A DNA stretch of 64,000 nucleotides from Calditrichaceae bacterium (GCA_050173015.1 JBFXLE010000008.1:584-64583), one strand, 5' to 3'; positions 2,624-21,083 are shown, counted from the first letter of the stretch. Program-made: numbers and translations. The notes: generated from the letters alone by a model not told the origin.

Positions 2624-3196
2624 TTGAGTTTGACAGATTTTGAACTGGTCCGGGAAACACTTGGTGGATCAACCATCGCGTTTGATGAGCTGATGCGGAG
2701 ATATGAAAAACTGGTATACAGAATCGCGTTTGGGTTTGGGAAGAATAATGATAATTCAATGGATATCACTCAGAATGTATTCCTGAAAACATACGAGAAA
2801 CTGCATTCATTCAAAATGAACAGCTCGTTTAAAACATGGATAACCAGGATTGCATTTAACGAGGGTATAAATTGGACAAGGAAGAATCGACATTCATCTT
2901 CACAAGAATTATTTGATGAGGGCATCATGAATTATGAGAATAAAAGCATTTCTCAGGAAGATGAGTTTTTGGCGAGAGAAAATAAATCTCAGCTCATTCA
3001 GAGCCTGTTCGCCTTAAACACAAGATACAGGCTCGCGGTGGTGCTGCGATATTTTGAAGATATGCCTGTAAAAGAGATCGCCGGTGTTTTGGAGTGCAGT
3101 GAAGGTGTGGTTAAAAGTATGCTCTTCCGCAGCCTTCAGCGGCTTAAAAACAATTTGCGGCAATCAGATATTGGAGATAATTATGGCCAAGTGTAA
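2624..3196 (+). CDS. ECF RNA polymerase sigma factor
   Basis: Region 2 (DITQNVFLK, SSFKTWITRIAFN) and region 4 (EIAGVLECSEGVVKSMLFR); TTG start after AGGAGG. Confidence 0.95.
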   Translation: MSLTDFELVRETLGGSTIAFDELMRRYEKLVYRIAFGFGKNNDNSMDITQNVFLKTYEKLHSFKMNSSFKTWITRIAFNEGINWTRKNRHSSSQELFDEGIMNYENKSISQEDEFLARENKSQLIQSLFALNTRYRLAVVLRYFEDMPVKEIAGVLECSEGVVKSMLFRSLQRLKNNLRQSDIGDNYGQV

Positions 3197-4124: not shown

Positions 4125-4135
4125 AGGGGATATAT

Positions 4136-5377: not shown

Positions 5378-5989
5378 CTATTTAGCGGCTACCAGATTTA
5401 GTTTGAGTATAAAATCATCATAAATCAGTTTGTCTCCTAAACCTTGGAAAAAACTACCCGAGCCGTATCTCACATTAAATTTCGCCCTGTTTACGGTAAT
5501 TTGCGCATTGGCGTTCAATTTACCGTTTTTTACATTAATTACAGCGGGAAATTCAATCGGATGAGTGATTCCTTTTATCGTCAGATTGCCTTTGATGTTA
5601 TAATTATATTGAGAATTTTCCTTATTAGCTGCTTCTTTTACATCTGTGATAACAAACCTGGATACCGGAAAGGAGGCGACCGAGAAAAAATCATCCGATT
5701 TTAAATGATTCATTAGTTTATTCTTATATTCCGGATCCTGGAGATCCAAATTCACAATAGAAGCCATATCGATCTCAAACTCACCGCCTGAAATTTTACC
5801 TTTTACAAGATTTAATCTCCCTTGTTTTAAGTTAATGGTGCCGGTATGCTCCCCTGTCACTTTTTTCCCGAACCATTCGATACTGCTTTCGGCGGGATTA
5901 AAGACATATTCCTGCGCATTTGTCTTTTCTATCGCGAACGAAAAGTTAAACATGAATATTACAAACAAAAAAGTGATAAATCTCTTCAT
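5378..5989 (-). CDS. YceI family lipid/polyisoprenoid-binding protein
   Basis: Signal peptide; W-x-GKKVTGEH-x-G, HLKSDDFF, GNLTIKGIT. Confidence 0.95.
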   Translation of the reverse strand: MKRFITFLFVIFMFNFSFAIEKTNAQEYVFNPAESSIEWFGKKVTGEHTGTINLKQGRLNLVKGKISGGEFEIDMASIVNLDLQDPEYKNKLMNHLKSDDFFSVASFPVSRFVITDVKEAANKENSQYNYNIKGNLTIKGITHPIEFPAVINVKNGKLNANAQITVNRAKFNVRYGSGSFFQGLGDKLIYDDFILKLNLVAAK

Positions 5990-6068
5990 AAGTATCTCCT
6001 GTAAATTAATGTATTCTATTTATTAATGTTGTTAACTTTTAATACAAATTATATATTCCCAAACATTT

Positions 6069-6082
6069 AATGTATATACACT
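6069..6082. promoter_or_regulatory. Putative MarR operator upstream of yceI
   Basis: Palindrome TGTATATACA (6071-6080); related TGTTACAACA at 6601-6610 upstream of marR. Confidence 0.5.
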
Positions 6083-6098
6083 TTTTATAATAAAAAAA

Positions 6099-6548
6099 TT
6101 ACCCGCGCAGCATATCGAGTAACTTGTTCAACTCATTTACTTCATCAGGACTCAATGTATAAAACTGTTTTTCCCATTCTTTTTCCAGTTCATCAATTTT
6201 TTTCAGTACATCCAGACCTTCTTGCGTAATCACCACATCCACCGCTCTTCGGTCATTTTCACATATATGTCGATCCACTAAGCCCTTTATTCTGAGTTTT
6301 TCAACCAGTCTTGATGCATTCGACATTTTATCGAGCATGCGGTCTTTAAGCAGATTAACCCGCGCGGGTTCCGGATACTGACCTCTGAGTATGCGAAGTA
6401 TGTTAAACTGCTGCGGCGATATTCCATATTTTTTTAATCTATTGGAAAGCAGCGAGTTCATCCATCCATGGGTAAACATTATATTAACAATCATTTTTTG
6501 ATACTCATTTTTAAATGTCTTCTGTTTAATTTCTTTTTCCAGTTCCAT
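6099..6548 (-). CDS. MarR family transcriptional regulator
   Basis: QQFNILRILRG, SNASRLVEKL, DRRAVDVVIT wHTH motifs; ATG at 6548 has an AGGA RBS. Confidence 0.95.
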   Translation of the reverse strand: MELEKEIKQKTFKNEYQKMIVNIMFTHGWMNSLLSNRLKKYGISPQQFNILRILRGQYPEPARVNLLKDRMLDKMSNASRLVEKLRIKGLVDRHICENDRRAVDVVITQEGLDVLKKIDELEKEWEKQFYTLSPDEVNELNKLLDMLRG

Positions 6549-6702
6549 TTCCAAATCCTGAAGTTTGTTAAACTTTAATAATGTATGTCTATATTTTTAG
6601 TGTTACAACATCTTTTTTGTGCATTAAAATTCCCCACGGCTTGATTGATTATTTTCGTAAATTGTGCTTTTCTTAACAAATGATGAAATATTTCATTCAC
6701 TA

Positions 6703-6754
6703 TTGACGGTTACAGTTAACAATCTTAAATTTCTGTTAGTATATTACAACTCAT
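6703..6754 (+). promoter_or_regulatory. Sigma70 promoter plus TetR operator (copy 1)
   Basis: TTGACG-N17-TAAATT followed by TCT-GTTAGT-N8-ACTCAT. Confidence 0.65.
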
Positions 6755-6766
6755 AGGAAAGAAACA

Positions 6767-7357
6767 ATGGTAAAATTGGACACTGAAACAAGACAAAAAC
6801 AAATTATTGAAGTGTCGCTTCGATTAATAAAAGAAGGCGGCATTCAAAACATGACGATGAAACGCATCGCGGATGAGGTGGGAATTTCCGAACAGGCCAT
6901 TTATCGTCATTTTGACAGCAAACTGGAACTTCTCACCGCCATCATCCGTCAATTTGACAAACATTTTGTCTCGGTTTTTAGCAAAATCAAGTCGATCGAA
7001 AACTCAGTTCAGCAGATTACTCAATATATCGATACACACCTGATTTATTTCACTCAAAATCCGGCCGCGGCCGCCGTAATTTTTTCAGAAGAGATTTTTC
7101 AGAATGAAGAAACACTTGTTCAGGAAGTAAAAAAGCTTCTTGAAAAGCGCATACAGTTTGTCACCGAACTGATGCAAAATGGCCAGAACCGCGGAGAAAT
7201 CAAAACCGAATATAGCGCCGACACTCTCGCCGTTCTTACACTCGGTGCGATGAGAATATTGATTACTTCCTGGAGACTGTCCAATTTCTCTTTTGATCTC
7301 AAAAGCAGAAGCAAATCGATTATCGATGACTTGATCAAAATGCTTCAGGTTAAGTAG
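6767..7357 (+). CDS. TetR/AcrR family regulator (paralogue 1)
   Basis: N-terminal HTH IADEVGISEQAIYRHFDSK. Confidence 0.95.
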   Translation: MVKLDTETRQKQIIEVSLRLIKEGGIQNMTMKRIADEVGISEQAIYRHFDSKLELLTAIIRQFDKHFVSVFSKIKSIENSVQQITQYIDTHLIYFTQNPAAAAVIFSEEIFQNEETLVQEVKKLLEKRIQFVTELMQNGQNRGEIKTEYSADTLAVLTLGAMRILITSWRLSNFSFDLKSRSKSIIDDLIKMLQVK

Positions 7358-7531
7358 AAAGTAGTATTGGTCATTCCGCGGACAAAACGTCAAAATGAAC
7401 GACGTAAACATTTCTTCATTCGCCGTGGTCAATTTAGAGAAGAACAGTTTTTACAAACCCTTATTGGATGACTTATGACACCCGATGCAAGGTAACTCAT
7501 GGAATGAATAGTAACATTGGGAGATTCTGAA

Positions 7532-8140
7532 ATGAAAAAAATTAATGCAGTGGACCGGATCGTTTTGCTTTTGACAGGATTACTGGCTGCGTATCAGGTT
7601 GTTGAAGGAATGCACGGTTATGAATTTTGGACTACCTTTTATTATACAACAGCGTTTGGTGTGCTTTTAATCGCCGGTCTGTTGATTATATTGTTTGGAT
7701 TTGATATTCTCGATAGCCCCATGGTTGTGGTTGTGGCCACCATCCTTCCCCTCACTCTTTCTCTTGGTCTGATATCCAATTATTTACCGGAATATCATAG
7801 CGGCTATTCGATTTTCGCCATTGCCGGTTTTATTTTAGTGGCAGTGACCCGATATACCACCGGCGGAAAATCCGCGACTATTTCCCTTGCCATCGTTCAT
7901 GGTATCGCCGGGATGATCATTTTTCTGTTGCCTATAATCTTTAGCATACGGGGCAATACCAATCCGGTGTTCGCGTTCGTCGGATTAGGCGGGGCGCTTA
8001 TCGGATTAGGCGGATTATTGCTCGCTTTTTTAAAAGCCGGTAAACCCATTCTTTCGCGTGATCTTATCTTTATGATTCTGCCCCTACTTCTGCTTTTAAT
8101 GACCGCTTCTTTTGTGATCGGATTTTCAGGAGCCGTCTAA
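7532..8140 (+). CDS. Uncharacterised ~7-TM membrane protein (paralogue 1)
   Basis: About seven hydrophobic helices; shares GGxLIGxGGxxLAFLKAGxPILS and HxxAG with 9008 and 13104; ATG at 7532 after GGGAG. Confidence 0.85.
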   Translation: MKKINAVDRIVLLLTGLLAAYQVVEGMHGYEFWTTFYYTTAFGVLLIAGLLIILFGFDILDSPMVVVVATILPLTLSLGLISNYLPEYHSGYSIFAIAGFILVAVTRYTTGGKSATISLAIVHGIAGMIIFLLPIIFSIRGNTNPVFAFVGLGGALIGLGGLLLAFLKAGKPILSRDLIFMILPLLLLLMTASFVIGFSGAV

Positions 8141-8192
8141 ATTCTTTCAGACGGAATATGATCTTAATATTTAATTTCAATTTGCTACGACA

Positions 8193-8222
8193 CCCCGTCT
8201 TAAATAAAGACGGGGAGTTTAT
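8193..8222 (+). terminator. Hairpin, probable terminator
   Basis: CCCCGTCTT-aaata-AAGACGGGG followed by AGTTTAT. Confidence 0.55.
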
Positions 8223-8278
8223 TCAATAGCAACTTTCAGACAATCAATTTCCTTTAAGTGAAAAAAATATTTTTTTTA

Positions 8279-8330
8279 TTGACATGAGATATTGTAGTTA
8301 TTAAGTTTCTGTTAGTAGATATAAACTAAC
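8279..8330 (+). promoter_or_regulatory. Sigma70 promoter plus TetR operator (copy 2)
   Basis: TTGACA-N17-TAAGTT followed by TCT-GTTAGT-N8-ACTAAC (perfect half-sites, 8311-8330). Confidence 0.75.
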
Positions 8331-8351
8331 TTAAACATTATGGACTAAATT

Positions 8352-8942
8352 ATGCAGAAATTGGATACCGCTACCAGACAGAAACAGATCGTACAGGTCT
8401 CTCTTGAAATTATTAAGACCGGTGGCATTCAGAATCTTACAATTAAAGAAATTTCAAAGCATATCGGTATCTCCGAACAGGCCATTTACAGGCATTTTGA
8501 CAATAAACTGGCCATATTAATCGCTATCATTCAATATTTTAATGAGCACTTCAAACATGTCTTTGAAAGCAGCCAGTATTTTGGCACCCCGCTTCAGCAG
8601 ATTGAGAAACTCATTAATGATCATTTATTATATTTTGACCGTAATCCGGCTACGGCGGCCGTCATTTTTTCGGAAGAAATTTTTCAAAACGACTCTACCC
8701 TTGTGGATGAAGTACATAAACTGGTGGATCGCAGAATACGTTTTGTGACCGCGCTCATTAAAAAAGGTCAGAAGATGGGTGAAATCAAAGATCAGTTCGT
8801 CCCGGAAAATCTGGCTTATATCATTCTCGGTACATTAAGATTTTTTGTTACTAAATGGCGTCTGACCAACTTCTCATTTAGTCTTCAGGCAAGAGGTGAG
8901 ACGTTGTCTCAGGATCTGATTAAATTTATACGATGTCAATAA
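8352..8942 (+). CDS. TetR/AcrR family regulator (paralogue 2)
   Basis: HTH GISEQAIYRHFD identical to paralogue 1; same length (196 aa). Confidence 0.95.
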   Translation: MQKLDTATRQKQIVQVSLEIIKTGGIQNLTIKEISKHIGISEQAIYRHFDNKLAILIAIIQYFNEHFKHVFESSQYFGTPLQQIEKLINDHLLYFDRNPATAAVIFSEEIFQNDSTLVDEVHKLVDRRIRFVTALIKKGQKMGEIKDQFVPENLAYIILGTLRFFVTKWRLTNFSFSLQARGETLSQDLIKFIRCQ

Positions 8943-8970
8943 GCAACGGGAAAATTATTTAGTTAATTTA

Positions 8971-8990
8971 GTTAGTTTTTATTAACTAAC
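8971..8990. promoter_or_regulatory. TetR operator (copy 3)
   Basis: GTTAGT-TTTTATTA-ACTAAC just upstream of the RBS of 9008. Confidence 0.7.
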
Positions 8991-9007
8991 ATTTTAAAAG
9001 GAGAGTC

Positions 9008-9637
9008 ATGATGAGTTTATTTGATCAACTTACGCTGCTCTTAACCGGCCTGGTCGCGATCTATATTATCTCGAAGTTTTACAGGGATTTTAAAGTTGAC
9101 GTTGCCAGACCTATCCATGACATCTATTATATGATCGGATTTACCGTATTACTGGTGGCCGGATTATTAATGATATTCCTGGGATTTGATGTTCTCGCGA
9201 ATCCCCTCGTAGTCGTTGTTGCGGCATTTATTCCCTTCGCATTATCCATCGGTCTTATATCCGAATTTTATCCCAAATTCGAGAAAATGTATCTTATTTT
9301 TGCTCTAATTGGTCTGATTTTGATTTTCCTGACACGTACTACAGAGTCAACCGTTCTTAGAACTCTTATCCTCGCTGTCTTTCACTCTGTGGCAGGCATA
9401 ACTATTTTTTTAGTACCTATTCTCGCGTCTAAAAACCAAAAAACCACCAATCAGTTTATCTGGGTTACTGTCGGCGGGACTTTGATCGGTATCGGTGGAA
9501 TCGCTCTTGCTTTTCTAAAAGCAGGCACTCCTATCCTGTCAAAAGAACTGATTTTTACCATATTAACCCCGCTTTTATTTCTGATGGCCGTGTCTTTTGC
9601 ATTCGGTTTTGCAAAAAAGATGGACTATCAAAAATGA
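9008..9637 (+). CDS. Uncharacterised ~7-TM membrane protein (paralogue 2)
   Basis: FHSVAG and GGTLIGIGGIALAFLKAGTPILS; AGGAG RBS. Confidence 0.85.
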   Translation: MMSLFDQLTLLLTGLVAIYIISKFYRDFKVDVARPIHDIYYMIGFTVLLVAGLLMIFLGFDVLANPLVVVVAAFIPFALSIGLISEFYPKFEKMYLIFALIGLILIFLTRTTESTVLRTLILAVFHSVAGITIFLVPILASKNQKTTNQFIWVTVGGTLIGIGGIALAFLKAGTPILSKELIFTILTPLLFLMAVSFAFGFAKKMDYQK

Positions 9638-9699
9638 ATATATGAATAACAACAATTTGAATTAATTAATTAATACTAACTTAAGGAAGGGTTTTAAGT

Positions 9700-11226
9700 A
9701 TGAAATCATCAACCGGGTACTTTAATTACCTCTTCAGATCGACAAAAGGCCTTGTGCTGGTTGCCATCTCCGTAGTCTCACTTATTACGGCAATCTGGGG
9801 CACTCTGTCCGGTCCCATGGTTGAATGGGGCGTGCGCGATCTGACAGTTAAACTGCTGGGTATGGATATGCATCACTGGGATCGTGAGGGACGCATTATT
9901 ATGCTCTATCACACCATTGCTATGGCAGTTTTAGCTATCGAAGTATATTTTATTACATCGATCGTTCCCATGAAAAAGCATCAGCAGGTTAATATCAACG
10001 CCACCATAACGGTGGGATATTTAACCGCCACCATTTTTGGACTTTGGTTCGCATATTTTGGACATGCTTATATTTTTCACGGTTTGTTTTTAGTCGGTCA
10101 GTCACTGGTCTTTTTCGCCGGCGTTTTATTGGCCGCCGCCTTGTGGCCATGGAATAAGGAATACTACCTGGCCGCAGACAGCGATTATGCCCATACAAAA
10201 TCAGGTATGGACCTTGAACGGGCGGCATTTTTTACGATGGCCGTAATGACATTACTTTCCGCCACATGGGGAGCTGTCACCGGTTCCTACTGGTCAAACG
10301 GGCATGAGACATTTTTGGCAGAAAACCTGATTCGCAATCCCCATAAAACAGCTCTGGAACACGCCATTATCGGACATTTGCACATTATGCTCTCGTTAGT
10401 GGCAGTAGCCATTACGCTGGTTGTCGGCAGATGGCTGGATTTCAAAGGAATGTTGCATAGGTGGGCCATGTATTTAATGATCCCTGGTACCATTATCCTT
10501 ACCTTGGGAGCATTGTCTATCGTATGGCTGCCATGGGCTCACAACACTATTTATGTCGGTTCGGTGGGCGTCATGTTGGCCGCGCTGCTCTATGTAATCT
10601 ATTCCTGGAAAAAGTTAATCAATGACCGTGTTGCCGAACTTGGATTAAGCAACCCTACCGTCTTTCAAAAAGTTAAAGCCCTGCTTCATGATCCACTTAA
10701 ATTCGGTACAGGCTGGCAGATGGTATTTATGAACTTCACAGTAAGCGGCGTGGGTATCTTTATGGCTGTCAAATTAGATAAAATTTTCCGTGTCTGGCCC
10801 GCCCGCGAAGAACGCATTACTCTGACCGGTCACTGGCATATTCTCGCCGCCATCATCGCTACTATCATTCTAATGTATTATGTGGATATGTCCGGCGTAA
10901 AAGGGAAAATAAGACAATGGTTTGGCTGGATACTCATTATCGGTTCGGATATCGCTTTTGCCTCAGCCACTATTTTTTCAATGAAACGGCTTTTTGTCAC
11001 CGAATACGCAAAGCAGCCATTAGTGAACATGACCATGTTGCTTATGGATTTTGGTCTGGGCGCCATATTGATTATTCTGGCTATTTTAATGGGTTGGCGA
11101 CTTTTTGATTTATTTAAACAGGATGGATTATGGAAAAAAGAAGCGATAAATCCTGAAGTGGACATACAGAGAATTTTTCCCGCGGCGCCTGTAAAAGATC
11201 TCAATGTTGAACAGGAGGTGAACTAA
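9700..11226 (+). CDS. ~12-TM His-rich membrane protein, divergent heme-copper oxidase subunit I / NnrS-like
   Basis: About 12 hydrophobic helices; His71 (helix II), H127, GHLH (226/228), H281, GHWH (378/380); heme O synthase two genes downstream. The ORF is secure; the family is inferred. Confidence 0.6.
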   Translation: MKSSTGYFNYLFRSTKGLVLVAISVVSLITAIWGTLSGPMVEWGVRDLTVKLLGMDMHHWDREGRIIMLYHTIAMAVLAIEVYFITSIVPMKKHQQVNINATITVGYLTATIFGLWFAYFGHAYIFHGLFLVGQSLVFFAGVLLAAALWPWNKEYYLAADSDYAHTKSGMDLERAAFFTMAVMTLLSATWGAVTGSYWSNGHETFLAENLIRNPHKTALEHAIIGHLHIMLSLVAVAITLVVGRWLDFKGMLHRWAMYLMIPGTIILTLGALSIVWLPWAHNTIYVGSVGVMLAALLYVIYSWKKLINDRVAELGLSNPTVFQKVKALLHDPLKFGTGWQMVFMNFTVSGVGIFMAVKLDKIFRVWPAREERITLTGHWHILAAIIATIILMYYVDMSGVKGKIRQWFGWILIIGSDIAFASATIFSMKRLFVTEYAKQPLVNMTMLLMDFGLGAILIILAILMGWRLFDLFKQDGLWKKEAINPEVDIQRIFPAAPVKDLNVEQEVN

Positions 11227-12146
11227 TGAACAAGCTATTTTATATTTTATCATCTCTGATCTTAATGTTCAGTATTTCATGCAACGCTCAGGACTATACA
11301 CCGACAAAAGAAATTAAATTCATTGATACCGGGATTGATGCAGAAGCCTGGGTTGAAATTCCGGCAGGCATATTTTTGAAGGGAATGCATCGTCATGAAA
11401 CAATGATTGAAAATCCTTTTGAAATTATGGTTACCGATGTAACCAACGCGCAGTATGTCAGATATCTTAACGAAGCCTTGGAAAAGGGCACCATAAAAGT
11501 TGAAGGAGATTCGGTAAGAGGATACTATCCCGGGGAGCCGTTCGATGGATATAAACATGAATTTGAAGTTCCGGCGGGTGATAAACTACATCTGAATTTA
11601 GCAGAGCCCGGTATGCGCATTCTCTTTGATGGGACATCCTTTTCAGTGGTGAGTGGATTTGAAAATCATCCTGTTACATTCGTGACATGGTTTGGCGCTA
11701 ATGCGTATGCCGAATTTTACGGCTGGCGTTTACCATTGGAAGACGAATGGGAAAAAGCCGCTCGTGGAACGGATGGGCGAACTTATCCCTGGGGTGAAAA
11801 AATCTCCCCAAATATCACAAACTATCTCAGTAGTCATAATCTTTTTGAGAGAATGCTTGGCGAAAATACAACCACAACGGCCGTCGGTTTTTATAATGGC
11901 AAAACATACGATGGCTACGAGACTCTTGAAAATAAAAGCCCCTATGGATTATATGATATGGCGGGAAATGTCTGGCAGTGGTGCGGGGATGATTATCCCG
12001 ATTTACACTATCGATATATGCGAGGCGGGAGCCGTGATAACTATGAATATAATCTGTTTACATGGGCTCGAAACAACGCCGGTCCCGACTTCTACAGTAT
12101 GTATGTGGGATTCAGATGTGCAAGGGACGTTCAACCAACAGAATAA
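11226..12146 (+). CDS. FGE-sulfatase (SUMF1/NirV-like) domain lipoprotein
   Basis: Lipobox SISC; VTNAQY, HPVTFVTW, RLPLEDEWEKAARG, YGLYDMAGNVWQW, RGGS, GFRC; TAATG overlap with the upstream gene. Confidence 0.92.
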   Translation: MNKLFYILSSLILMFSISCNAQDYTPTKEIKFIDTGIDAEAWVEIPAGIFLKGMHRHETMIENPFEIMVTDVTNAQYVRYLNEALEKGTIKVEGDSVRGYYPGEPFDGYKHEFEVPAGDKLHLNLAEPGMRILFDGTSFSVVSGFENHPVTFVTWFGANAYAEFYGWRLPLEDEWEKAARGTDGRTYPWGEKISPNITNYLSSHNLFERMLGENTTTTAVGFYNGKTYDGYETLENKSPYGLYDMAGNVWQWCGDDYPDLHYRYMRGGSRDNYEYNLFTWARNNAGPDFYSMYVGFRCARDVQPTE

Positions 12147-12210
12147 TATGATTCAATTATGGATGGTACAAGGTTCCCAGGGAAGGGATTTTAATAGTTA
12201 GGATTTCATT

Positions 12211-13107
12211 ATGAAGAATAAAAATATATTTCATGAATCAAGGACTCTTTTCAGGGCAAAGTTTAAATTATACTGGCCTTTGATAAAAAGTCTTCAAACC
12301 GGACTATTGGTGATTACCGGAATAACGGGGTACATCAGTGCCAGATGCCCCGTTATAACCTGGGATGTATTTGCCGGTCTGATCGGCAGTCTATTTCTTA
12401 CGGTCAGTGGTAGCACTGTTCTTAACATGATTTATGACAGAGATATAGACGCAAAAATGGGCAGAACGGCACACCGACCCCTGCCATCCGGCAAACTAAG
12501 TGTGAAGGAAACACTTGTTCTGGGATCGTTTTTGTCTTTTGCGGGCTTATTTTGGGCATTTATGCTCTCTGTTCCCTATGGAATGGTCGTTTTCGCCGGG
12601 ATCTTCATCGATGTTGTCATCTACACCATCTGGCTTAAAAGAAAAACCGCCTGGTCGATTATTTGGGGCGGCGTTTCCGGCGGCATGCCGATTTTGGCGG
12701 GAAGAGTACTGGGTCTGGGTCATGTTGACAGCATAGGGCTTTTGTTCGCCCTGGCAATACTTTTGTGGATACCTACCCATATCATGACATTCAGTATGCG
12801 TTACTTTGATGATTACAAACGCGCGGGTGTCCCCACTTTTCCATCGACTTACGGCAACAAAAAAACAACACTGGTGATTGCCTTTTCGAGTCTTGCAGCG
12901 GCTGTCGCTATCGGAATTGGCGCCGTCGCGCTGGGCCTTTCCTGGGGCTATCTGCGCCTTTTTATAGTTCTTTCGACCGGTATCCTGGGTCTTGCCATAG
13001 TCATTGTATTCCGACCTTCGGAAAAAGTGAATTTCGGCATGTTTAAGTATGCCTCTGTATACATGCTCAGCTCAATGATCATGATCGCGTTGGGGGTCAT
13101 GTCATGA
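12211..13107 (+). CDS. ctaB: Protoheme IX farnesyltransferase (heme O synthase)
   Basis: UbiA-family NMIYDRDIDAKMGRTAHRPLPSG, YTIWLKRKT, WIPTH, DDYKRAGVP. Confidence 0.92.
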   Translation: MKNKNIFHESRTLFRAKFKLYWPLIKSLQTGLLVITGITGYISARCPVITWDVFAGLIGSLFLTVSGSTVLNMIYDRDIDAKMGRTAHRPLPSGKLSVKETLVLGSFLSFAGLFWAFMLSVPYGMVVFAGIFIDVVIYTIWLKRKTAWSIIWGGVSGGMPILAGRVLGLGHVDSIGLLFALAILLWIPTHIMTFSMRYFDDYKRAGVPTFPSTYGNKKTTLVIAFSSLAAAVAIGIGAVALGLSWGYLRLFIVLSTGILGLAIVIVFRPSEKVNFGMFKYASVYMLSSMIMIALGVMS

Positions 13108-13712
13108 AAAAATTATCCGGCGTCAGCCGGATGGCGCTTTTAATGACGGCAATGCTCGCGGCTTTCCAAATAGTCTCGGGAATTGAAGGCACTCCCATAC
13201 TTTCAGGAGTTTATTATACTATCTCCTTCGGAGTTCTTCTGGTCGCGGCTTTACTACTGATTTTATTCGGGTTTGAGATCATGGAATTTCCTGCGATCGC
13301 GGTGATTGCCACCATCATCCCAAACGCTCTTTCATTGGGTCTGGTCGCGCAATATCTGCCTGAATATCACATTTCTTATCTTGCTGTGGTATTAATCGAA
13401 CTGCTTTCCATGGCAGTTTCAAGATATTTTTCAAGTTCAAAGCAAATTATAACCATAGTAACATCAATCACTCACGGGACGGCGGGACTTATTATATTCA
13501 TCTTCCCGCTTTGGCTCAGTATAGCCGGGACCACTAAACCGATTTTTTCGCTTGTCGGGGCCGGCGGGGCCCTTATCGGTTCCGGTGGACTGCTTCTGGC
13601 ATTTTTAAAAGCCGGAAAACCAATCTTGTCCCGTGATACAATTTTTTCAATCCTGCCTGTCATACTTTTAGTGATGACGGCAGCTTTTGTCGTCGGTATG
13701 ACTGCAGGTTAG
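13104..13712 (+). CDS. Uncharacterised ~7-TM membrane protein (paralogue 3)
   Basis: THGTAG and GGALIGSGGLLLAFLKAGKPILS; ATGA overlap with ctaB. Confidence 0.85.
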   Translation: MKKLSGVSRMALLMTAMLAAFQIVSGIEGTPILSGVYYTISFGVLLVAALLLILFGFEIMEFPAIAVIATIIPNALSLGLVAQYLPEYHISYLAVVLIELLSMAVSRYFSSSKQIITIVTSITHGTAGLIIFIFPLWLSIAGTTKPIFSLVGAGGALIGSGGLLLAFLKAGKPILSRDTIFSILPVILLVMTAAFVVGMTAG

Positions 13713-13782
13713 TTTATAAAGTTAAGAGGTATGTTAGTTTTATTGTATTTATTCATGATTAATTTTTTGAGGAGATTTTAGA

Positions 13783-14805
13783 ATGCTAAACAAAACGAAC
13801 AAAACTCAGCGCATTGTTATGGCTGTTACCGCGGTTATCGCCGGTTTGTTCATGATGTACATCGCGCCTACCCAGGGAATGCAGACTCTAAAGATCGCGC
13901 TGGAAAATGTTATGGAACGACTTATCCCGTTCGATCCGGATTTTTATCCGGCTGTACCAATCTTAGGGGCCACATATGGGGTCTGGATGGTAATTCTTTG
14001 GCTAGCGGGAGCCTTTGCGATTGTTATCGCGAAAAAAGTCTATGAGGGTGAAGAGTGGGCAAGAAGCACAATGCTTGGTCTGGCGGCAATCCCATCCGTA
14101 GCCGGTATGACCATGTTGATACCATGGATGGTGCTTGTCGTTTCCGATTATTCTACCGGACCGGTTCCGGGCATTTTACCTCCACCCGCTGATATTTCGG
14201 TGATGCCACCGGTATTATGGACGATGGTTTTCGGCCTGATTTTCTATTATATCTTCCTGCTTGCCGATCAGGATTCATTAAAAAATAAGATCCTTAAACT
14301 TATCCCTTACACATATCTTGGCATTGTAGCCGGAATGGTATTTATGAACGGCCAGCATGGTGTGCGCTATTTCATCTTTATTCCGGAATACCTGACACAT
14401 ACATCTTCACTTGAGCCGTTGGGTAATTTCTTTACCAATCTGGACCACTATGACGCGTTGGCTTTGGTCACAACTTCACAGGCAGCCATTAATGCCGGTG
14501 AAATTGCAAAAACAACTGAAGCGGTTTATAATCCCAACACATTGACACTTCTGTTGGGTGGATTCATGAACTACGCCTCTTCATATCTGATGATATTAGC
14601 AATACCATTCCTGGCGATGAAGAAAAAAATCGGTTATTATACCGTTCTTGCAACCGCATTGGCAACCGCCCTTATCGGTTTTGACGGTTATATTGTACGT
14701 CATTCATTTGAATGGGGTGTCGGTGGAGTTATGTCGCTGGCATTGTTGGGCGTTTTCCTGCTTCCTGTATTTAAACAGTTCTTTATTGAAGAAAAAGCAG
14801 TTTAA
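13783..14805 (+). CDS. Uncharacterised multi-pass membrane protein
   Basis: About 8 hydrophobic segments, MNGQHGVRYF motif, GGAG RBS. Confidence 0.8.
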   Translation: MLNKTNKTQRIVMAVTAVIAGLFMMYIAPTQGMQTLKIALENVMERLIPFDPDFYPAVPILGATYGVWMVILWLAGAFAIVIAKKVYEGEEWARSTMLGLAAIPSVAGMTMLIPWMVLVVSDYSTGPVPGILPPPADISVMPPVLWTMVFGLIFYYIFLLADQDSLKNKILKLIPYTYLGIVAGMVFMNGQHGVRYFIFIPEYLTHTSSLEPLGNFFTNLDHYDALALVTTSQAAINAGEIAKTTEAVYNPNTLTLLLGGFMNYASSYLMILAIPFLAMKKKIGYYTVLATALATALIGFDGYIVRHSFEWGVGGVMSLALLGVFLLPVFKQFFIEEKAV

Positions 14806-14901
14806 CTAAAATTTGAAACAATCGGCGGCTTCGCGTCGCCGGTGTTTCTGCATGGATGTCAACCAGAAATAATTTTTAATTGAAATTTTAGGGAGAAACT
14901 C

Positions 14902-16089
14902 GTGAAAAATATTACACTTTCGATGCTTTTGGTTCTGTCTCTCTCCATATCAACTGCGCTGGCTACAGACGGAGATCAGATGTTGGGTATTACAGCTAAT
15001 CAATGGGCCCGCGCCGGTGCGATTATTGCAGCGCCGGCTGATATTCCAAGTATGATATATAATCCCGCGGCAATTGGTGAATTAAAATTCAACAAAATCG
15101 GTTTTGACCTGAGTCTGGGTATACTGAATCCACCACGTGAAATCACTTCTGTCAAGGGTACTACCGAGAGTAGCGCCAATACCTATCTTGGTATGGGTAA
15201 CGGGTTCAGCGCGCGGAAATCTGATAAGATTGTATTTGGAATTGCGGCCGGCGGCGTTTCCGGAATGGGTGTTGATTTTCCCTATAGTACTTTCCCTGAC
15301 AATCCTGAAACACCATTTGCGGAAAACTCATCCATCGTAACCAAAAAAGGGTTGTTAAAAATAACACCTACCGTGGCAATAAATGTGAATGAGAAATTGA
15401 CAATCGGCGCATCACTGCAAATTGGACAACAATCATTGGCCCTTAAAACAGCCGGATTCACCTTACCGCAAACGGAAGAATATGGATTTGGCGGTGCTCT
15501 AGGAGCCATTTATCACATTACTCCTAAACTTCAGGCCGGAATTTCTTATACATCTGAGATGAATATTTCTGAATATTCTTACAACGGCACCAGCCCTTCC
15601 GCCGGTGAAGGCGAATATAAGTTTGATATGGATAGCCCGCAGAATGTTTCATTTGGTCTGGCATTTATTCCGAATGAAAGATTGTTGGTTGAAGCTGACG
15701 TCAGATGGTATAACTTTTCCGGTGTTCTTGATAAACTGGATCTAAAAACACCTTCAGGAGGCGTTATACCGATTACATTTGGTTGGGACGACCAAATGGT
15801 TTATGCTCTCGGAATGGATTTTGCCGTAAAACCCGGGTTAGTCTTAAAAGCCGGCTATAATTATGGCGAATCTCCCATTGGTGAAGAAGACGTGGACAGC
15901 AACCTCGGTTCCATCGCCGTCGTCGAGCACCATTTTTCAATTGGTGTCGCAAAAAACTGGAACAAGGCTTTATGTTCTACCCTTTCCTATACACACGGCT
16001 TGCATAATGAAGTTGAATCCAATAAATCACCAAATAAAATTGCCGCGGAACAAAATATTGTATTTTTACAATTCAGTTTTCGTATGTAA
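14902..16089 (+). CDS. OmpP1/FadL family outer-membrane transporter
   Basis: Signal peptide, YNPAAI hatch motif, GMGVDF, LKAGYNYGESPI, C-terminal FLQFSFRM beta-signal. Confidence 0.88.
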   Translation: MKNITLSMLLVLSLSISTALATDGDQMLGITANQWARAGAIIAAPADIPSMIYNPAAIGELKFNKIGFDLSLGILNPPREITSVKGTTESSANTYLGMGNGFSARKSDKIVFGIAAGGVSGMGVDFPYSTFPDNPETPFAENSSIVTKKGLLKITPTVAINVNEKLTIGASLQIGQQSLALKTAGFTLPQTEEYGFGGALGAIYHITPKLQAGISYTSEMNISEYSYNGTSPSAGEGEYKFDMDSPQNVSFGLAFIPNERLLVEADVRWYNFSGVLDKLDLKTPSGGVIPITFGWDDQMVYALGMDFAVKPGLVLKAGYNYGESPIGEEDVDSNLGSIAVVEHHFSIGVAKNWNKALCSTLSYTHGLHNEVESNKSPNKIAAEQNIVFLQFSFRM

Positions 16090-16104
16090 GTTTTTTGATA
16101 TTTC

Positions 16105-16136
16105 GAAGAGCCGTCACTGACGGCTCTTCTTTTGTT
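16105..16136 (+). terminator. Intrinsic terminator
   Basis: GAAGAGCCGTCA-C-TGACGGCTCTTC followed by TTTTGTT. Confidence 0.85.
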
Positions 16137-16208
16137 AATTGAGTTCACGATTGTATCACCATTTTTAAGTTGATTGCATAGTATTAAAAACCCCGCGGGA
16201 GAAATAAT

Positions 16209-16919
16209 ATGACTAATTCAAAAAAATACATTTTCTTTTTTCTGACTGCTGCGCTGTTAATGTCGTCTGGCCTCAGCCAGGCGGGAGATGACACTCAGTT
16301 TCTGCCTGATTTTTATGACAAAGTTGAACCGATTATTTTAGTTGATCCCCTTGGTTCTTTTCTTGGTGCCGTAAACGAAGGTGAAACCTATGTCTATCAT
16401 TACGCCGACATTATAAAATACAGTGGACATTCATGCTCCTCTATTGCCGGAGCGTATAAAATGACACAAATCGCGCTAAAAGAACTATACGGGACTGAAA
16501 CACCGGTTCGCGGTCAGATAAGAGTCACCATGAAGGGAAGCCCCGAGTATCAGGTAAATGGTCCCATCTCACAAGCGATTTCGTTCATAACCGGTGCCGC
16601 GGCAGAGACCGGATTTAAAGGCATAAAAGGTAAATTCTTTACCCGTCAAAACCTTTTAAAATACGAACCGGAGAATCCCCCGGCAGAAGGTGTCTGGGCG
16701 GAAGCTACTTTTCAGAGGACGGATAATAATCAATCAGTGACGGTTACTTACAGAACGGACCTGATTCCCGGAAATCCTGAAATGGGAAAACTTATGCCGG
16801 TTATGTTAAGCGGAAAAGCCAACGAAGAACAGAAAAAACTATTTGGTGAAATCTGGCAGGAAGCGGTGCGGATCGCCCTGATGGACCCGCCGGATGGTAC
16901 ATTTGTTGTTTCAAAATAA
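16209..16919 (+). CDS. FmdE-like protein with signal peptide
   Basis: GHSCSSIAGAY, PVRGQI, FITGAA, GFKG; hydrophobic N-terminus ending SQA. Confidence 0.7.
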   Translation: MTNSKKYIFFFLTAALLMSSGLSQAGDDTQFLPDFYDKVEPIILVDPLGSFLGAVNEGETYVYHYADIIKYSGHSCSSIAGAYKMTQIALKELYGTETPVRGQIRVTMKGSPEYQVNGPISQAISFITGAAAETGFKGIKGKFFTRQNLLKYEPENPPAEGVWAEATFQRTDNNQSVTVTYRTDLIPGNPEMGKLMPVMLSGKANEEQKKLFGEIWQEAVRIALMDPPDGTFVVSK

Positions 16920-17140
16920 TCGCTTAAGTCAAAAAAATGAATGCCAAATTATTTAAATACCAAAACTTAAGGGCGAACAAATTGTTCGCCTATTAACTTA
17001 TGTAGATTTTATATTTTGAGATCTGATATTGCATAATTAAGTTTAGAACGTTATAAAACAGCGGGACAAATCAATATTATTAATGCCGGATCACAGCTTA
17101 GAAGCGAATCCCGCATTAATATTATTAGGGTGGTGTATTT

Positions 17141-17791
17141 ATGAAAACTCTTAGTGAAGTCAGTACCAAATTCAGATATGCATTTTATGATGAAGTCGAA
17201 CCGATCAAGCTTACTGATCCATTATCGGCATTTCTTGGCGCAACGCGTGATTCCGATGTTTTTGCATACAGCTATAAAGATATTGTAAAACTCAGCGGAC
17301 ATTCCTGTCCAACCGTGGCGGGAGCGTATAAATCGACTCAATTGGCATTAAAAAGTCTTTATGATAAGACGACTCCGGTCCGTGGTCAAATAAGAGTAAA
17401 AATAGCCGGAGGTCCTGAACAGCTGGTGAACGGTCCCGTATCACAGGTCATTACTTTTATTACAGGCGCGGCTCCGATCACAGGCTTCAAAGGAATAAAA
17501 GGAAAATTCAACCGTTACGAAATGCTTACATTTGATGAAAACGTACAGCCTGAAAAAGATGTTTCATCCGATATTCTGTTTGAGAGAACCGATTCGCATA
17601 AAAAAGTACGCGTTTTATATCGGCCGCAATTTATATATCAAAATCCGGAAATCGGCCGTCTGCTGCCCTTAATGTTAAGCGGGATGGCCACAGAGTCGGA
17701 TAAATTAAGCTTTGGTGATTTCTGGCAGGAACGTGTCCGGGTCATATTGCTGGAGACACCACCGGAGGCATTCGAGTTATTAAATTATTAA
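17141..17791 (+). CDS. FmdE-like protein (no signal peptide)
   Basis: GHSCPTVAGAY, PVRGQI, FITGAA; clear paralogue of 16209. Confidence 0.72.
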   Translation: MKTLSEVSTKFRYAFYDEVEPIKLTDPLSAFLGATRDSDVFAYSYKDIVKLSGHSCPTVAGAYKSTQLALKSLYDKTTPVRGQIRVKIAGGPEQLVNGPVSQVITFITGAAPITGFKGIKGKFNRYEMLTFDENVQPEKDVSSDILFERTDSHKKVRVLYRPQFIYQNPEIGRLLPLMLSGMATESDKLSFGDFWQERVRVILLETPPEAFELLNY

Positions 17792-17824
17792 TTCGCGGAT
17801 GAACTAAATTCTGACTGGGGATAT

Positions 17825-18271
17825 TTGTTGTTAAAAAATATTGATAAAGGTATTAAGAGAAACTGGTTGTTGATCATTTCAGGGATAATGTGGTCAGGGG
17901 TAGGAATCCTTCTGAATAGTTTTGCCGGTCGATGGCTTTCTGCCTACAGCAGGTTTGAAATAACAGAATCTATTCTCATTGGCAGCTTTCTAGGTATGCT
18001 GATTGCTTTTTTTGGGTTTAAACGGGTGGCCCAAAAAAATATCCGGCGTATTCTGAATCTTCGAGAAAAAACATGTCCTTTCGCCTTCCAGGAATGGAAA
18101 AGTTATGTACTGATTATTTTTATGATGAGCCTTGGAATCTATTTACGTCATACCACCCTGATCCCAAAACTGTATCTGTCTATGATGTATATTGGTATCG
18201 GATCCGCTTTATTCCTCTCCAGTTTTTTTTATTATTACAGCTATGTCAGTATTGAGAAATGTGACAGATAA
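17825..18271 (+). CDS. Hypothetical 4-TM membrane protein
   Basis: Four hydrophobic segments; TTG start after GGGG. Confidence 0.7.
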   Translation: MLLKNIDKGIKRNWLLIISGIMWSGVGILLNSFAGRWLSAYSRFEITESILIGSFLGMLIAFFGFKRVAQKNIRRILNLREKTCPFAFQEWKSYVLIIFMMSLGIYLRHTTLIPKLYLSMMYIGIGSALFLSSFFYYYSYVSIEKCDR

Positions 18272-18418: not shown

Positions 18419-19045
18419 ATGATTGAAAAAAAATCAGCAGAATTCATCAGAAATATGTCCGATACTGATCTCGTTCAGGCTTCTCTCAAAGATAAGGAAT
18501 ATTTTTATTATTTAATGATAAAATACGAATCAAAATTGCTGCTGTATATTAATCGTATTACAAATGTAAATAAGGATGAAGCAGAGGATATTCTCCAGGA
18601 AATTTTTATCAAAGTGTATCGTAACCTTCATAGTTTCAGGCAGGATCTGTCCTTTTCCACCTGGCTCTATCGAATTGCCCGCAATGAAATTATTAATCAA
18701 TATCACAAAAAAAATTCCCGGCCCTTTATTTCTGACTCATCAGGTATTCATGATGATATTAAAATACTAAATGAAATTATTTCTCCAACGCCTGACAGCC
18801 ATTCAGAATATATAGAACATGAGTGTTCAAAAAAGATAAAAAACGCGCTTTATAATCTGCCTGACAAATATCGTGAAGTGCTGGTATTGCATTATTTGGA
18901 AAATTTAACTTACGATGAGATCAGTGACATTTTGCTAAAGCCTGCCGGAACAATCGCTTCACTTATTAATCGCGGTAAATCAAAATTTAGGAAAATCGCT
19001 GAACGTCAAGATATTAACCTGGTGAATTATTATGACAAATCTTAG
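18419..19045 (+). CDS. ECF RNA polymerase sigma factor
   Basis: AEDILQEIFIKVY, FSTWLYRIARN, EISDILLKPAGTIASLINRGK. Confidence 0.93.
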   Translation: MIEKKSAEFIRNMSDTDLVQASLKDKEYFYYLMIKYESKLLLYINRITNVNKDEAEDILQEIFIKVYRNLHSFRQDLSFSTWLYRIARNEIINQYHKKNSRPFISDSSGIHDDIKILNEIISPTPDSHSEYIEHECSKKIKNALYNLPDKYREVLVLHYLENLTYDEISDILLKPAGTIASLINRGKSKFRKIAERQDINLVNYYDKS

Positions 19046-19751
19046 TAAAAAAACACTGGAAATCATCGAAAAAAACAAGATAAATCCCTACCCAAAATCG
19101 TATTTTTTACTACGACGTTCGGTAATTTGGACATTATTTTTCATTTCGGTATTGCTAGGATCTGTGGCAAGCGGAATTGCTATATACCAATTAAAACAAA
19201 CAGAATGGGAACTGTTGCATTATTTTAGCCACGACGTGTACAGATATATATTCATCGCCGTACCATATTTTTGGATCTTCTTTTTATCAGGTTTTACAGG
19301 ATTTATCTATTATTATTTTCGGCGGATGGGAAAAGGATATCGATATAACTCGATACTTGTTATCCTGAGCAGCATAATTTTATCTGTCACCGGTGGATTA
19401 ATTCTGAATAGGTCTGTTATCCCATTCAGACTGGAATCATTAATGGAACAAAATTTTACGTTTTATGAAAGTTCTGAAGAACGCAAGCAGGAGGTCTGGT
19501 CTTCACCGGGTGACGGCCTTTTGGCGGGAATTATCGAAAAAAATATTTCTAAAGAACAAATAATGTTAACAGACTTTCATGGAGCTACATGGTCAATTGA
19601 CATATCTGTGGCTTTATTTCGCGGAAAACTGATTCCTGCGGAAGGTTTAAAGGTAAAACTTATAGGTCGGCAGACAGGAAACCAACAGTTCAAGGCCGTT
19701 GAAGTTCGTCTGTGGGACGGTCAGGATAAAAGAAACCGTATCCTGCGATAA
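19032..19751 (+). CDS. Putative membrane anti-sigma factor (3 TM plus C-terminal beta domain)
   Basis: Overlaps the sigma gene end by 14 nt; three hydrophobic helices. Confidence 0.65.
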   Translation: MTNLSKKTLEIIEKNKINPYPKSYFLLRRSVIWTLFFISVLLGSVASGIAIYQLKQTEWELLHYFSHDVYRYIFIAVPYFWIFFLSGFTGFIYYYFRRMGKGYRYNSILVILSSIILSVTGGLILNRSVIPFRLESLMEQNFTFYESSEERKQEVWSSPGDGLLAGIIEKNISKEQIMLTDFHGATWSIDISVALFRGKLIPAEGLKVKLIGRQTGNQQFKAVEVRLWDGQDKRNRILR

Positions 19752-20051: not shown

Positions 20052-21083
20052 ATGACGACCATAAAACGATTCAACCCAGGATTTTTTATTTTTTTAATTT
20101 TTTCCTTTTTCACCATTGCAAACGCGCAAACTGAGATTGGTGGATTTTTTGATGTCATAAACAGCACAGATATGGAAGCCGGGCAGAATACCGGATTTAC
20201 TGTCAACCAGTTTGAGATTGCCATTTCACAATCATATGATAGTCCCATTTCGATAGACGCGGCAATCGGATATAATAAAGATGACGGCAAAATGGAGTTA
20301 GCCGACGCTGTAATACACTATACCAGTAAATTAGGTTCAGAGCACATTATTTTCGGAACCGACACCATTCACGCCCATGCCGGGATTTCCATTGGCCAGA
20401 CCGACGTGCCTTTCGGAATTGATTACCTGTCTTTCGACGCCCCTGTGCGACCGGTAGTGACACAACCTCTTATTTATCAGAAAACCGTTGGTGAATGGTC
20501 CGGTACGGGCATCAATATTCATACAACTCAAAAAAATTACAATCTTGATTTATTCTCAACCAACGGCCTGAACGGTGATCTTACGTTTGGGGCGCATTCA
20601 GGATTTACTTTTATCGACAACCTGGAATTCGGATTTTCATACGCGGCAGAATTCAGTTCAATCGACACAAAAAGTAACTGGATAACCGGCGTTGACTTCG
20701 CCGCAACACTTGGATCGCTTGATATTAAATCGGAATATCTCTGGACAAAAAATCTGCTTGACGCCGCTCAGGATACTATTTCTTCTGACAAAATCTATCA
20801 GGGATTTTATGTTCAGCTCTCAAATGATTTTGAAAATGTGATCAATTTGCCGGTTTTTGCGACTGCCCGATTTGGATACTGGGAATCTGAAATGGATCGT
20901 GATTTCAGCGGGGACAAGGATACTCAGAACAGAATCACTCTGGGACTGGGGTACCGCACAGATTATGATGCCGAAGTCAGAATTGAATATCTCTCTGATC
21001 AGGTTGAAGACGACAGCAGATATAATGTTCTCACTTTACAACTTGTCACCTGGATGGATATGAAATCCCTTGTCATCCGGTGA
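20052..21083 (+). CDS. Putative outer-membrane beta-barrel porin
   Basis: Signal peptide (ANA-Q), amphipathic strands, GQTDVPFG, RITLGLGY. Confidence 0.7.
   Translation: MTTIKRFNPGFFIFLIFSFFTIANAQTEIGGFFDVINSTDMEAGQNTGFTVNQFEIAISQSYDSPISIDAAIGYNKDDGKMELADAVIHYTSKLGSEHIIFGTDTIHAHAGISIGQTDVPFGIDYLSFDAPVRPVVTQPLIYQKTVGEWSGTGINIHTTQKNYNLDLFSTNGLNGDLTFGAHSGFTFIDNLEFGFSYAAEFSSIDTKSNWITGVDFAATLGSLDIKSEYLWTKNLLDAAQDTISSDKIYQGFYVQLSNDFENVINLPVFATARFGYWESEMDRDFSGDKDTQNRITLGLGYRTDYDAEVRIEYLSDQVEDDSRYNVLTLQLVTWMDMKSLVIR

Follow-up and report, generated by a model that had tools for sequence, protein, structure and literature searches.

The stretch of DNA studied here, below called the window, comprises 64,000 nucleotides of a Calditrichaceae bacterium (GCA_050173015.1 JBFXLE010000008.1:584-64583) and lies on contig C8 of a host genome of 4.3 Mb. 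Its positions 6,703-18,271 carry a gene cluster built around a protein with twelve transmembrane segments (12-TM protein) and a heme O synthase-like prenyltransferase, in which the original prediction saw a TetR-regulated redox system. On the whole, 13 open reading frames (ORFs) are located here, all on the plus strand, from 6767 to 18271; every listed gene is present and co-oriented as had been stated, while the number given, 12, has to be raised to 13, which is also what the prediction's own list adds up to. The centre of the cluster consists of the 12-TM protein of 508 residues (9700..11226), a lipoprotein with the fold of the formylglycine-generating enzyme (FGE; 11226..12146), the heme O synthase-like UbiA prenyltransferase (12211..13107) and a protein with seven transmembrane segments (7-TM protein, copy c; 13104..13712). 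The start of the FGE gene overlaps the stop of the 12-TM gene in a TAATG, and the 7-TM gene is translationally coupled with the synthase gene by an ATGA; both overlaps had been claimed, and both are read directly in the sequence. The families of the window proteins were called with Pfam and NCBIfam, and neither has a match for the three 7-TM proteins, the 12-TM protein, a 340-residue membrane protein, the second of two FmdE-like proteins and a 4-TM protein. The reading of this cluster that we favour, with moderate confidence and as the most likely one, is a heme O-dependent membrane enzyme complex.

Based on a locus scan with one genome per species, 460 stretches are shown to encode a relative of the 12-TM protein, from which the closest 80, all in other genomes, were retrieved. 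The counts of neighbouring genes given in the following refer to these 80 loci, may not apply to the most distant members, and, for positions relative to the 12-TM gene, include only the copies with sufficient flanking DNA. The FGE gene directly follows the 12-TM gene in all 75 copies, and 63 of 64 copies have the synthase-like gene no more than 2.6 kb away. A 7-TM gene is present downstream in 50 of 60 copies, and of the 69 copies that could be judged for the 1 kb upstream, 33 have a 7-TM gene there and 11 a TetR gene. Among the 34 loci with at least 3 kb upstream and at least 6 kb downstream, 33 have a 7-TM gene, 21 a relative of the 340-residue protein and 14 the 4-TM gene, and FmdE-like, FadL and TetR genes are found in 6, 4 and 11 of them, respectively. 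Co-occurrence in other genomes had been proposed as a check on the cluster, and the core genes turn out to be conserved in the 80 loci. These belong to Calditrichota, Melioribacteraceae and other Ignavibacteriota, Anaerolineales and other Chloroflexota, bins labelled Chlorobiota, Bacteroidales, Neomarinimicrobiota, Aminicenantes, a Deltaproteobacteria bin and Marithrix, and include a bin labelled Draconibacterium orientale (L057). A long form of the cluster, including TetR, 12-TM, FGE, synthase, 7-TM, 340-residue, FadL, 4-TM and porin-like genes and a further 7-TM gene, recurs in Calditrichota, Melioribacteraceae and one Bacteroidota bin. In addition, an unbiased clustering of the ORFs in the 80 loci yields a Crp/Fnr-type regulator in 24 loci (Chloroflexota), DUF423/YgdD proteins in 17, and two membrane protein families of 226 and 266 residues in 23 loci each, the latter with 47% identity to one of the genes of a second cluster copy in the host.

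This second copy of the core is found by tblastn on contig C3, with a 7-TM gene, a 12-TM gene (65% identical), an FGE gene (59%), a synthase-like gene (73%) and a TetR gene. An MMPL/RND transporter flanks it on one side, and PAP2, PHP, a Mla-type ABC system and an OmpW-like protein are located further along the other side; judged by these gene families, the surroundings would be a second association with the transport of hydrophobic molecules. The stretch C3:84390-101500 (locus L092) holds four TetR genes in 17 kb as well as the MlaD/E/F-type ABC system. Within the phylum, the family is present in 13 of 86 genomes, or in 8 of the 53 of good quality, and the 12-TM protein is about 70% identical between Calditrichota, Chloroflexota and others. 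Such patchy presence, together with the high identity across phyla, indicates that the cluster has probably spread horizontally as an accessory module.

The synthase (UbiA, 1.3e-47) has heme O synthase models as its three best NCBIfam matches, at 209.5, 177 and 118 bits, whereas the family that comes next reaches 71 bits. The best score is that on TIGR01473, whose curated cut-off is 210.3 bits; the synthase of the C3 copy has 210.1 bits on the same model, and orthologues in other genomes pass the cut-off with up to 236 bits. In 68 cluster synthases the residues N72, D76, D80, R85, R89 and D134 are invariant, and both Asp-rich motifs of UbiA are retained. Across phyla, cluster-type synthases cannot be told from canonical ones by bit score alone, and identity, neighbours and a tree were used. 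Identity to the window copy is 55-73% for the synthases with FGE and 12-TM genes on their flanks, 28-35% for the other heme O synthases of the same genomes, several of them beside COX1, and about 30% for the canonical CtaB of the host. In a quick maximum-likelihood tree of 50 rows, with every second cluster sequence included and a long-branched outgroup that has no reliable placement, 35 cluster synthases (support 98) and 14 canonical rows (support 96) fall on opposite sides. As far as such a tree can tell, the cluster synthase forms a clade of its own apart from canonical CtaB. It thus resembles CtaB/CyoE/COX10 (TIGR01473) as a member of the same family by profile score and in both Asp-rich motifs, and differs from them in its separate clade and in being linked to 12-TM and FGE genes instead of cox or cyo. 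The product is presumably heme O. A score just under the cut-off, the low identity to canonical CtaB, the long separate branch and a 12-TM neighbour without sequence similarity to heme proteins would also suit a prenyltransferase that acts on another tetrapyrrole, a quinone or a lipid, with the 12-TM and 7-TM proteins handling or transporting its product or binding only metal ions. We hold this to be improbable, as the three best models are all heme O synthases with the next family far behind, orthologues do pass the cut-off, and the neighbouring protein has the predicted fold of the one enzyme class that uses heme O.

A heme O-dependent enzyme complex with its own synthase has also to be seen against the ordinary oxidases of the host. 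Within about 25 kb, contig C22 encodes a canonical CtaB (289 bits), CtaA, two COX1, COX2, COX3 and Sco, and two further COX1 genes, of the size of quinol-dependent nitric oxide reductase (qNOR), are located on contigs C3 and C37. The prediction had stressed that no CuA subunit II, subunit III, CtaA or Sco is present in the window, and such genes are indeed those on C22; CtaG, also mentioned there, was not searched for. It had further reckoned with the possibility that the cluster ctaB serves an oxidase encoded elsewhere. The canonical ctaB found with the cox genes on C22 makes the window synthase most probably a dedicated extra copy, not the supplier of the ordinary oxidases. A COX2-like cupredoxin stretch at C8:146982-147152, outside the window, lies inside an open frame of 655 residues, whose size and domain would fit nitrous oxide reductase. 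As for the carriers in general, COX1 was scored by the Pfam cut-off in 40 cluster-bearing genomes; it is found over the cut-off in 25 and missing in 15, including 12 with no match at all, these COX1-less carriers being metagenome bins of unstated completeness in which absence is not proven. All 18 heme O synthase matches in the 15 genomes score 207-230 bits, and the five of them that were checked, in four genomes (G088, G093, G095 and G120), are each located at the position of the cluster synthase.

We then turn to the 12-TM protein, the presumed client of this synthase. Among its relatives, which number more than 3,231 proteins in a word-limited search, none is named and none has a Pfam domain; an exhaustive search of representatives at 50% identity gives 293 matches, among which full-length members have as little as 27% identity. 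Five histidines, H127, H226, H228, H281 and H378, never vary across 28 aligned sequences (down to 22% identity), and two more, H71 and H380, occur in at least 90% of them; in addition, E208 and R364 are invariant, and R65, Y70 and E371 nearly so. The AlphaFold model (pLDDT 88.1, pTM 0.89) has twelve long helices. Searched against PDB with Foldseek, it has as its best 28 rows only subunit I of oxidases or NO reductases (cbb3, ba3, aa3, bo3, qNOR), with probability 1.00, TM-scores of 0.44-0.58 and a best E of 1.3e-3, and from rank 29 down there are a few unrelated membrane proteins with TM-scores about 0.2. The three four-helix units that make up this fold are still alike in the sequence: HHalign relates unit 3 to unit 2 with a probability of 97.3% (E 1.9e-11) and to unit 1 with 65.9%, the pair of units 1 and 2 reaching 5%.

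In the model, helices 2 and 4 carry one of the seven histidines each (H71 and H127, respectively), helix 6 carries H226 and H228, helix 8 has H281 at its beginning, and helix 10 carries H378 and H380; if the N-terminus is inside, all seven would lie in the periplasmic half. A natural fusion in the representative library (P0122, 785 residues), in which the 12-TM protein is followed by one extra helix and the FGE domain, fits this orientation, since the helix added after helix 12 carries the FGE domain outward. Canonical oxidase subunit I has six histidines, one on helix 2, one on helix 6, two on helix 7 and two on helix 10; the ligands of the hemes come from helix 2 and from the H-x-H of helix 10, those of copper from helices 6 and 7. 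By helix number, which is the sole basis for the equivalence, the heme-ligand pattern of the 12-TM protein would fit that of oxidases, with the metal part rearranged. The protein shares with heme-copper oxidase subunit I (CtaD/CyoB, CcoN, NorB; PF00115) twelve predicted helices in three four-helix units, best structural matches to ba3, cbb3, bo3 and qNOR, one conserved histidine on helix 2, the H-x-H pair on helix 10, further histidines on helix 6, and a heme O synthase-like gene next door. It differs in having no detectable sequence similarity, seven conserved histidines and not six, no tyrosine four residues after either histidine of helix 6, units that have kept their likeness to each other, and no subunit II or III, its partners being instead the FGE-fold lipoprotein and 7-TM proteins. 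The claim that the synthase-like gene serves the 12-TM protein rather than a canonical oxidase is well supported by comparison, namely by the adjoining synthase and its own clade, the separate ctaB, the subunit I fold and the carriers without COX1. As a whole the prediction is supported in part: the binding of heme O, by the 12-TM protein or also by the 7-TM proteins, redox activity, and O2 or NO as substrate are its conjectural parts.

Distant relatives of oxidases with one or three four-helix units were reportedly described by Pei, Li, Kinch and Grishin in 2014, who are said to have suggested that they act on reactive small molecules; most of the three-unit families are said to have two conserved histidines and would bind one heme. 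Compared with this description, the 12-TM protein has seven histidines, and it may itself be among the families listed there. In a passage of PMC4602095, the families of Pei et al. 2014 with homology to heme-copper oxidases include NnrS and four-helix proteins such as YgdD. No member of the 12-TM family matches Pfam NnrS, and a DUF423 protein shows a weak HHalign alignment with unit 2 of the 12-TM protein (probability 39.9%, E 3e-4). A full-text literature search, whose coverage does not include Pei et al. 2014, found no paper on the 12-TM family or the cluster; within the literature searched there is accordingly no characterised operon that the cluster would match, a possibility the prediction had left room for. 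Besides, weak COX1-like ORFs are found near the cluster in some carriers, one being a 404-residue protein (COX1 E 0.0091) in five loci, which include L025 and L069 of Anaerolineales, and the others two adjacent ORFs of about 140 residues at G112:C1:35093-35748, with 20-25 bits and about 13 kb upstream of the 12-TM gene. These ORFs could represent further distant proteins with oxidase units.

The FGE-fold protein contains an FGE-sulfatase domain (PF03781, 2e-38) at residues 40-300, and its signal sequence ends in a cysteine, as in lipoproteins. Formylglycine-generating enzyme has a pair of catalytic, copper-binding cysteines. Among 73 FGE sequences of the cluster the only invariant cysteine is C298, in a C-terminal GFRC motif, and the catalytic pair is therefore missing; the best solved relative is the inactive SUMF2 (1y4j, E 4.6e-19). 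Like pFGE/SUMF2, the inactive FGE paralogue, the protein has the FGE-sulfatase fold without the catalytic pair, and unlike it, it belongs to the lipoproteins, is coupled to the 12-TM protein or, in some organisms, fused with it, and has its own invariant residues H111, E112 and H148. The fusion P0122 supports that the 12-TM and FGE products work as one complex. FGE-fold proteins of the NirV type are encoded beside copper nitrite reductase, a periplasm-facing redox enzyme, which would be a parallel to the pairing seen here. We also considered FGE and prenyltransferase together as an ergothioneine-like small-molecule pathway and rejected it, because EgtB, SenA and OvsA are matched in the common FGE domain alone, with 49-52 bits against cut-offs of 360-420.

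The 7-TM proteins are encoded in three copies, at 7517..8140 (copy a), at 9008..9637 (copy b) and, as described, downstream of the synthase. Copy b represents an upstream type, located elsewhere directly ahead of the 12-TM gene. Compared with the three copies of the window, all 36 upstream copies of other genomes come closest to the one at 9008, and 51 of 60 downstream copies to those at 7517 or 13104. The AlphaFold model (pLDDT 95.7) is a plain seven-helix bundle with one invariant histidine (H124). Oxidase subunit III was tried as an identity and rejected, since the structures it resembles are unspecific bundles of seven helices (rhodopsins, GPCRs), none with an E better than 0.026. A complex prediction for the 12-TM and 7-TM proteins scores 0.00, which is below the mark and counts as evidence neither way. 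The 340-residue multi-TM protein (13783..14805), with about eight segments by the earlier count and ten peaks in a crude hydropathy profile, is distantly related to the 266-residue Chloroflexota neighbour family (HHalign probability 63.9%). When the 4-TM, 340-residue and 7-TM proteins are compared by HHalign with the three 12-TM units, as single or double oxidase units, all probabilities stay under 10%. The 4-TM gene (17825..18271) is a recurrent accessory gene of the cluster.

As to the entry of electrons, Pfam and NCBIfam detect no cupredoxin, cytochrome c or quinol-binding CyoA-type subunit II domain in the cluster, and none of the 16 cluster proteins examined has a CXXCH or CxxC motif. No fusion of an electron-entry domain to the 12-TM protein of at least 890 residues was found, which is weak evidence, and a 793-residue reading in locus L076 that looked like a fusion is an artefact of masked bases. 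The missing of a recognisable electron-entry subunit, together with several small membrane proteins of unassigned role alongside and the patchy spread usual for accessory functions, would agree with a 12-TM protein that binds heme O but is no enzyme, being a sensor, a heme store, or a chaperone or exporter of heme for other proteins. Yet its identity of about 70% from Calditrichota to Chloroflexota, and the constancy of seven histidines and of acidic and basic residues, would sooner be expected of a catalytic core, and 15 of the 40 carriers have no detected canonical oxidase to receive the heme, so that we give this explanation very little credit and keep to a heme O-dependent enzyme.

The regulation of the cluster is best seen in its upstream part, with two TetR-family regulators. 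The first (6767..7357; TetR_N 1e-14) has a YsiA/FadR-like C-terminal domain (TetR_C_4 5.7e-11), and the second (8352..8942; TetR_N 1e-10) is 55% identical to it. The repeated operator announced for this region is real as a motif, GTTAGT-N8-ACTAAC, with five matches at no more than two mismatches in the window, all within 6735-9680, as compared to 1.35 expected; one of 100 shuffles reached five. Two matches, at 8967 and 8971, overlap at one locus, leaving four distinct places, each just upstream of a gene. The first (6735..6754, two mismatches) lies upstream of the first TetR gene and overlaps a promoter-like site at 6716-6745; the second (8311..8330) and the third (8971..8990) are perfect 6-N8-6 palindromes, 41 bases upstream of the second TetR start and 37 bases upstream of the 7-TM start at 9008, and are the predicted operators, a TetR gene with a palindrome near its own promoter; the fourth (9661..9680), degenerate with two mismatches, is located ahead of the 12-TM gene. 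Over the whole genome only seven matches with at most one mismatch are found, including three perfect copies, two in the cluster of the window and one at C3:93916, about 190 bases ahead of the TetR gene in the second copy. TetR control as claimed is probable for the window, with its two TetR genes and the motif, but is not a general rule, since most relatives in Chloroflexota carry the Crp/Fnr-type regulator. Terminator-like hairpins are located after 7-TM copy a (8193-8215) and, a strong one, after the FadL gene (16105-16129), which suggests three transcription units: the first TetR with its 7-TM gene, the second TetR to FadL, and the FmdE-like genes with the 4-TM gene.

The FadL/TodX-type outer-membrane channel (14902..16089) matches Toluene_X with 2.6e-22 and 79.4 bits, the cut-off being 29.7, and starts with an N-terminal signal-like sequence. 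The own outer-membrane channel of the original prediction is thus found, while channels for hydrophobic molecules argue somewhat against a freely diffusing gas, which it also proposed, as the only substrate. An alternative is that the oxidase-fold protein is a membrane oxygenase or oxidase for a hydrophobic compound, which enters by FadL or OmpW and is sensed by the FadR/YsiA-like TetR proteins, and not a terminal reductase of O2 or nitric oxide (NO). It agrees with the FadL gene inside the operon, ahead of the terminator at 16105, with the FadL homologues in seven related diderm loci (L014, L017, L019, L021, L022, L023 and L077), with a porin-like or MetA-like outer-membrane protein in other diderm loci, with the location of the C3 copy between the MMPL/RND transporter and the Mla-type ABC/OmpW-like stretch, and with the two TetR proteins, for both of which NCBIfam ranks the Bacillus fatty-acid regulator FadR first (68 and 60 bits, below cut-off). 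We nevertheless consider it unlikely, as only 4 of the 34 long-flank loci have FadL and only 11 have TetR, most relatives carry the Crp/Fnr-type regulator of the 24 Chloroflexota loci instead, and no oxidase-fold protein is, to our knowledge, an oxygenase.

Behind the strong hairpin follow two FmdE-like proteins, the first (16209..16919; FmdE 2.4e-6) with a signal peptide and a GHSC motif, the second (17141..17791) 54% identical to the first and with no signal peptide from its first start codon. In Anaerolineales the FmdE-like proteins are lipoproteins and often tandem fusions; those of L030 and L080 are lipoproteins of 504-519 residues with two tandem domain copies, mirroring the adjacent pair of the window. 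Beyond the 4-TM gene, an extracytoplasmic function (ECF) sigma factor (18419-19045; Sigma70_r2 and r4, SigW-like with 120 bits) is overlapped by the gene of a membrane protein (19032-19751; 239 residues, about four hydrophobic segments, no family match), and then comes a probable porin-like outer-membrane protein (20052..21083, plus strand), with a weak Porin_O_P match (E 0.0056) on a homologue. The ECF sigma and 239-residue genes thus sit between the 4-TM and porin-like genes, and because these two are adjacent in related clusters, the pair resembles an insertion into the cluster. By tblastn, the ECF sigma factor also matches the window at about 2627-3175, just ahead of a zf-HC2 (anti-sigma type) protein with HEAT repeats and a DUF4097 'toastrack' protein (3084-5263). 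Directly upstream of the cluster, a YceI-like protein and a MarR regulator (5378-6554) are encoded divergently on the minus strand, and are not among the recurrent neighbours of the 80 related loci; the YceI family is described as polyisoprenoid-binding.

Taken together, our reasons for reading the cluster as a heme O-dependent membrane enzyme complex are its gene order and the natural fusion, the synthase clade of its own, and, for the 12-TM protein, the oxidase-like fold with the conserved histidines. The catalytic core of this complex would be the 12-TM protein, remotely related to heme-copper oxidase subunit I and made of three four-helix units, and it would receive prenylated heme from the adjacent, dedicated paralogue of heme O synthase. 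The cysteine-less FGE-fold lipoprotein would be the periplasmic subunit, and the 7-TM proteins with their single histidine, the 340-residue protein and the 4-TM protein may be further subunits or assembly factors. Electrons would most likely come from quinol, because no cupredoxin, c-type heme or CxxC protein is encoded. The two TetR repressors, acting on GTTAGT-N8-ACTAAC, would keep the operon off until a ligand, probably a hydrophobic one, appears, and FadL with the porin-like protein would give access through the outer membrane. In this picture we infer the binding of heme O, a complex extending beyond the FGE subunit, the quinol donor and redox catalysis, while the order of the genes and its conservation, the modelled fold, the constant histidines, the synthase clade and the canonical oxidase set, both separate, and the operator motif are what the analysis shows. 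The substrate may be O2 or NO, or a hydrophobic compound; the Crp/Fnr regulators of Chloroflexota point toward O2, NO or redox signals.

Several points weigh against this reading. On the side of the synthase, the score of the window copy stays 0.8 bits under the cut-off, and heme O is a presumed product. On the side of the 12-TM protein, the match of the model to oxidases is loose (root-mean-square deviation 7.5-12 A, E about 1e-3), and the sequence comparisons give nothing: Pfam COX1 and NnrS match none of 28 family members at E up to 5, the family profile searched against PDB finds no oxidase but only a chance match (E 0.78), and HHalign with the four COX1 proteins of the host gives probabilities of 0.3-3% in three alignments. 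The histidines deviate from the oxidase pattern, in that helix 6 has a pair of them and helix 7 lacks them altogether, while helix 4 and the beginning of helix 8 each contribute an additional one, and their assignment to a heme or metal site depends solely on helix position. The unstated completeness of the COX1-less bins also counts here, and so does the patchy spread, which fits an accessory role and not a core respiratory one. Finally, FadL, the porin-like and OmpW-like proteins, MMPL and the fatty-acid-type TetR point to a hydrophobic ligand or substrate, something that the reduction of O2 or NO would not require. A bolder version of the enzyme complex would make it a new branch of the oxidase superfamily, with a tripled four-helix unit, heme O, a differently built histidine-metal site, an FGE lipoprotein replacing the cupredoxin or cytochrome, and a chemistry that heme-copper enzymes are not known to perform, for example on a hydrophobic substrate delivered by FadL, in low-oxygen sediment bacteria, some of them without an ordinary oxidase; this we regard as a possibility worth stating, though a doubtful one.

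Heme O is, as far as we know, regarded as a cofactor made only for heme-copper oxidases. If the enzyme reading is true, the 12-TM family would be a new client of heme O, invisible to every oxidase profile, and Anaerolineales, Calditrichota, Ignavibacteriota, Bacteroidales and Neomarinimicrobiota may have in it a terminal or detoxifying enzyme of a new type. These carrier groups are abundant in sediments and sludge, where gene catalogues of oxygen and nitrogen-oxide metabolism would miss the 12-TM family. In addition, the window would offer a testable pair of regulator and operator plus an outer-membrane channel, and the threefold repeat of the 12-TM protein, still visible at the level of sequence, would bear on the origins of oxidases.

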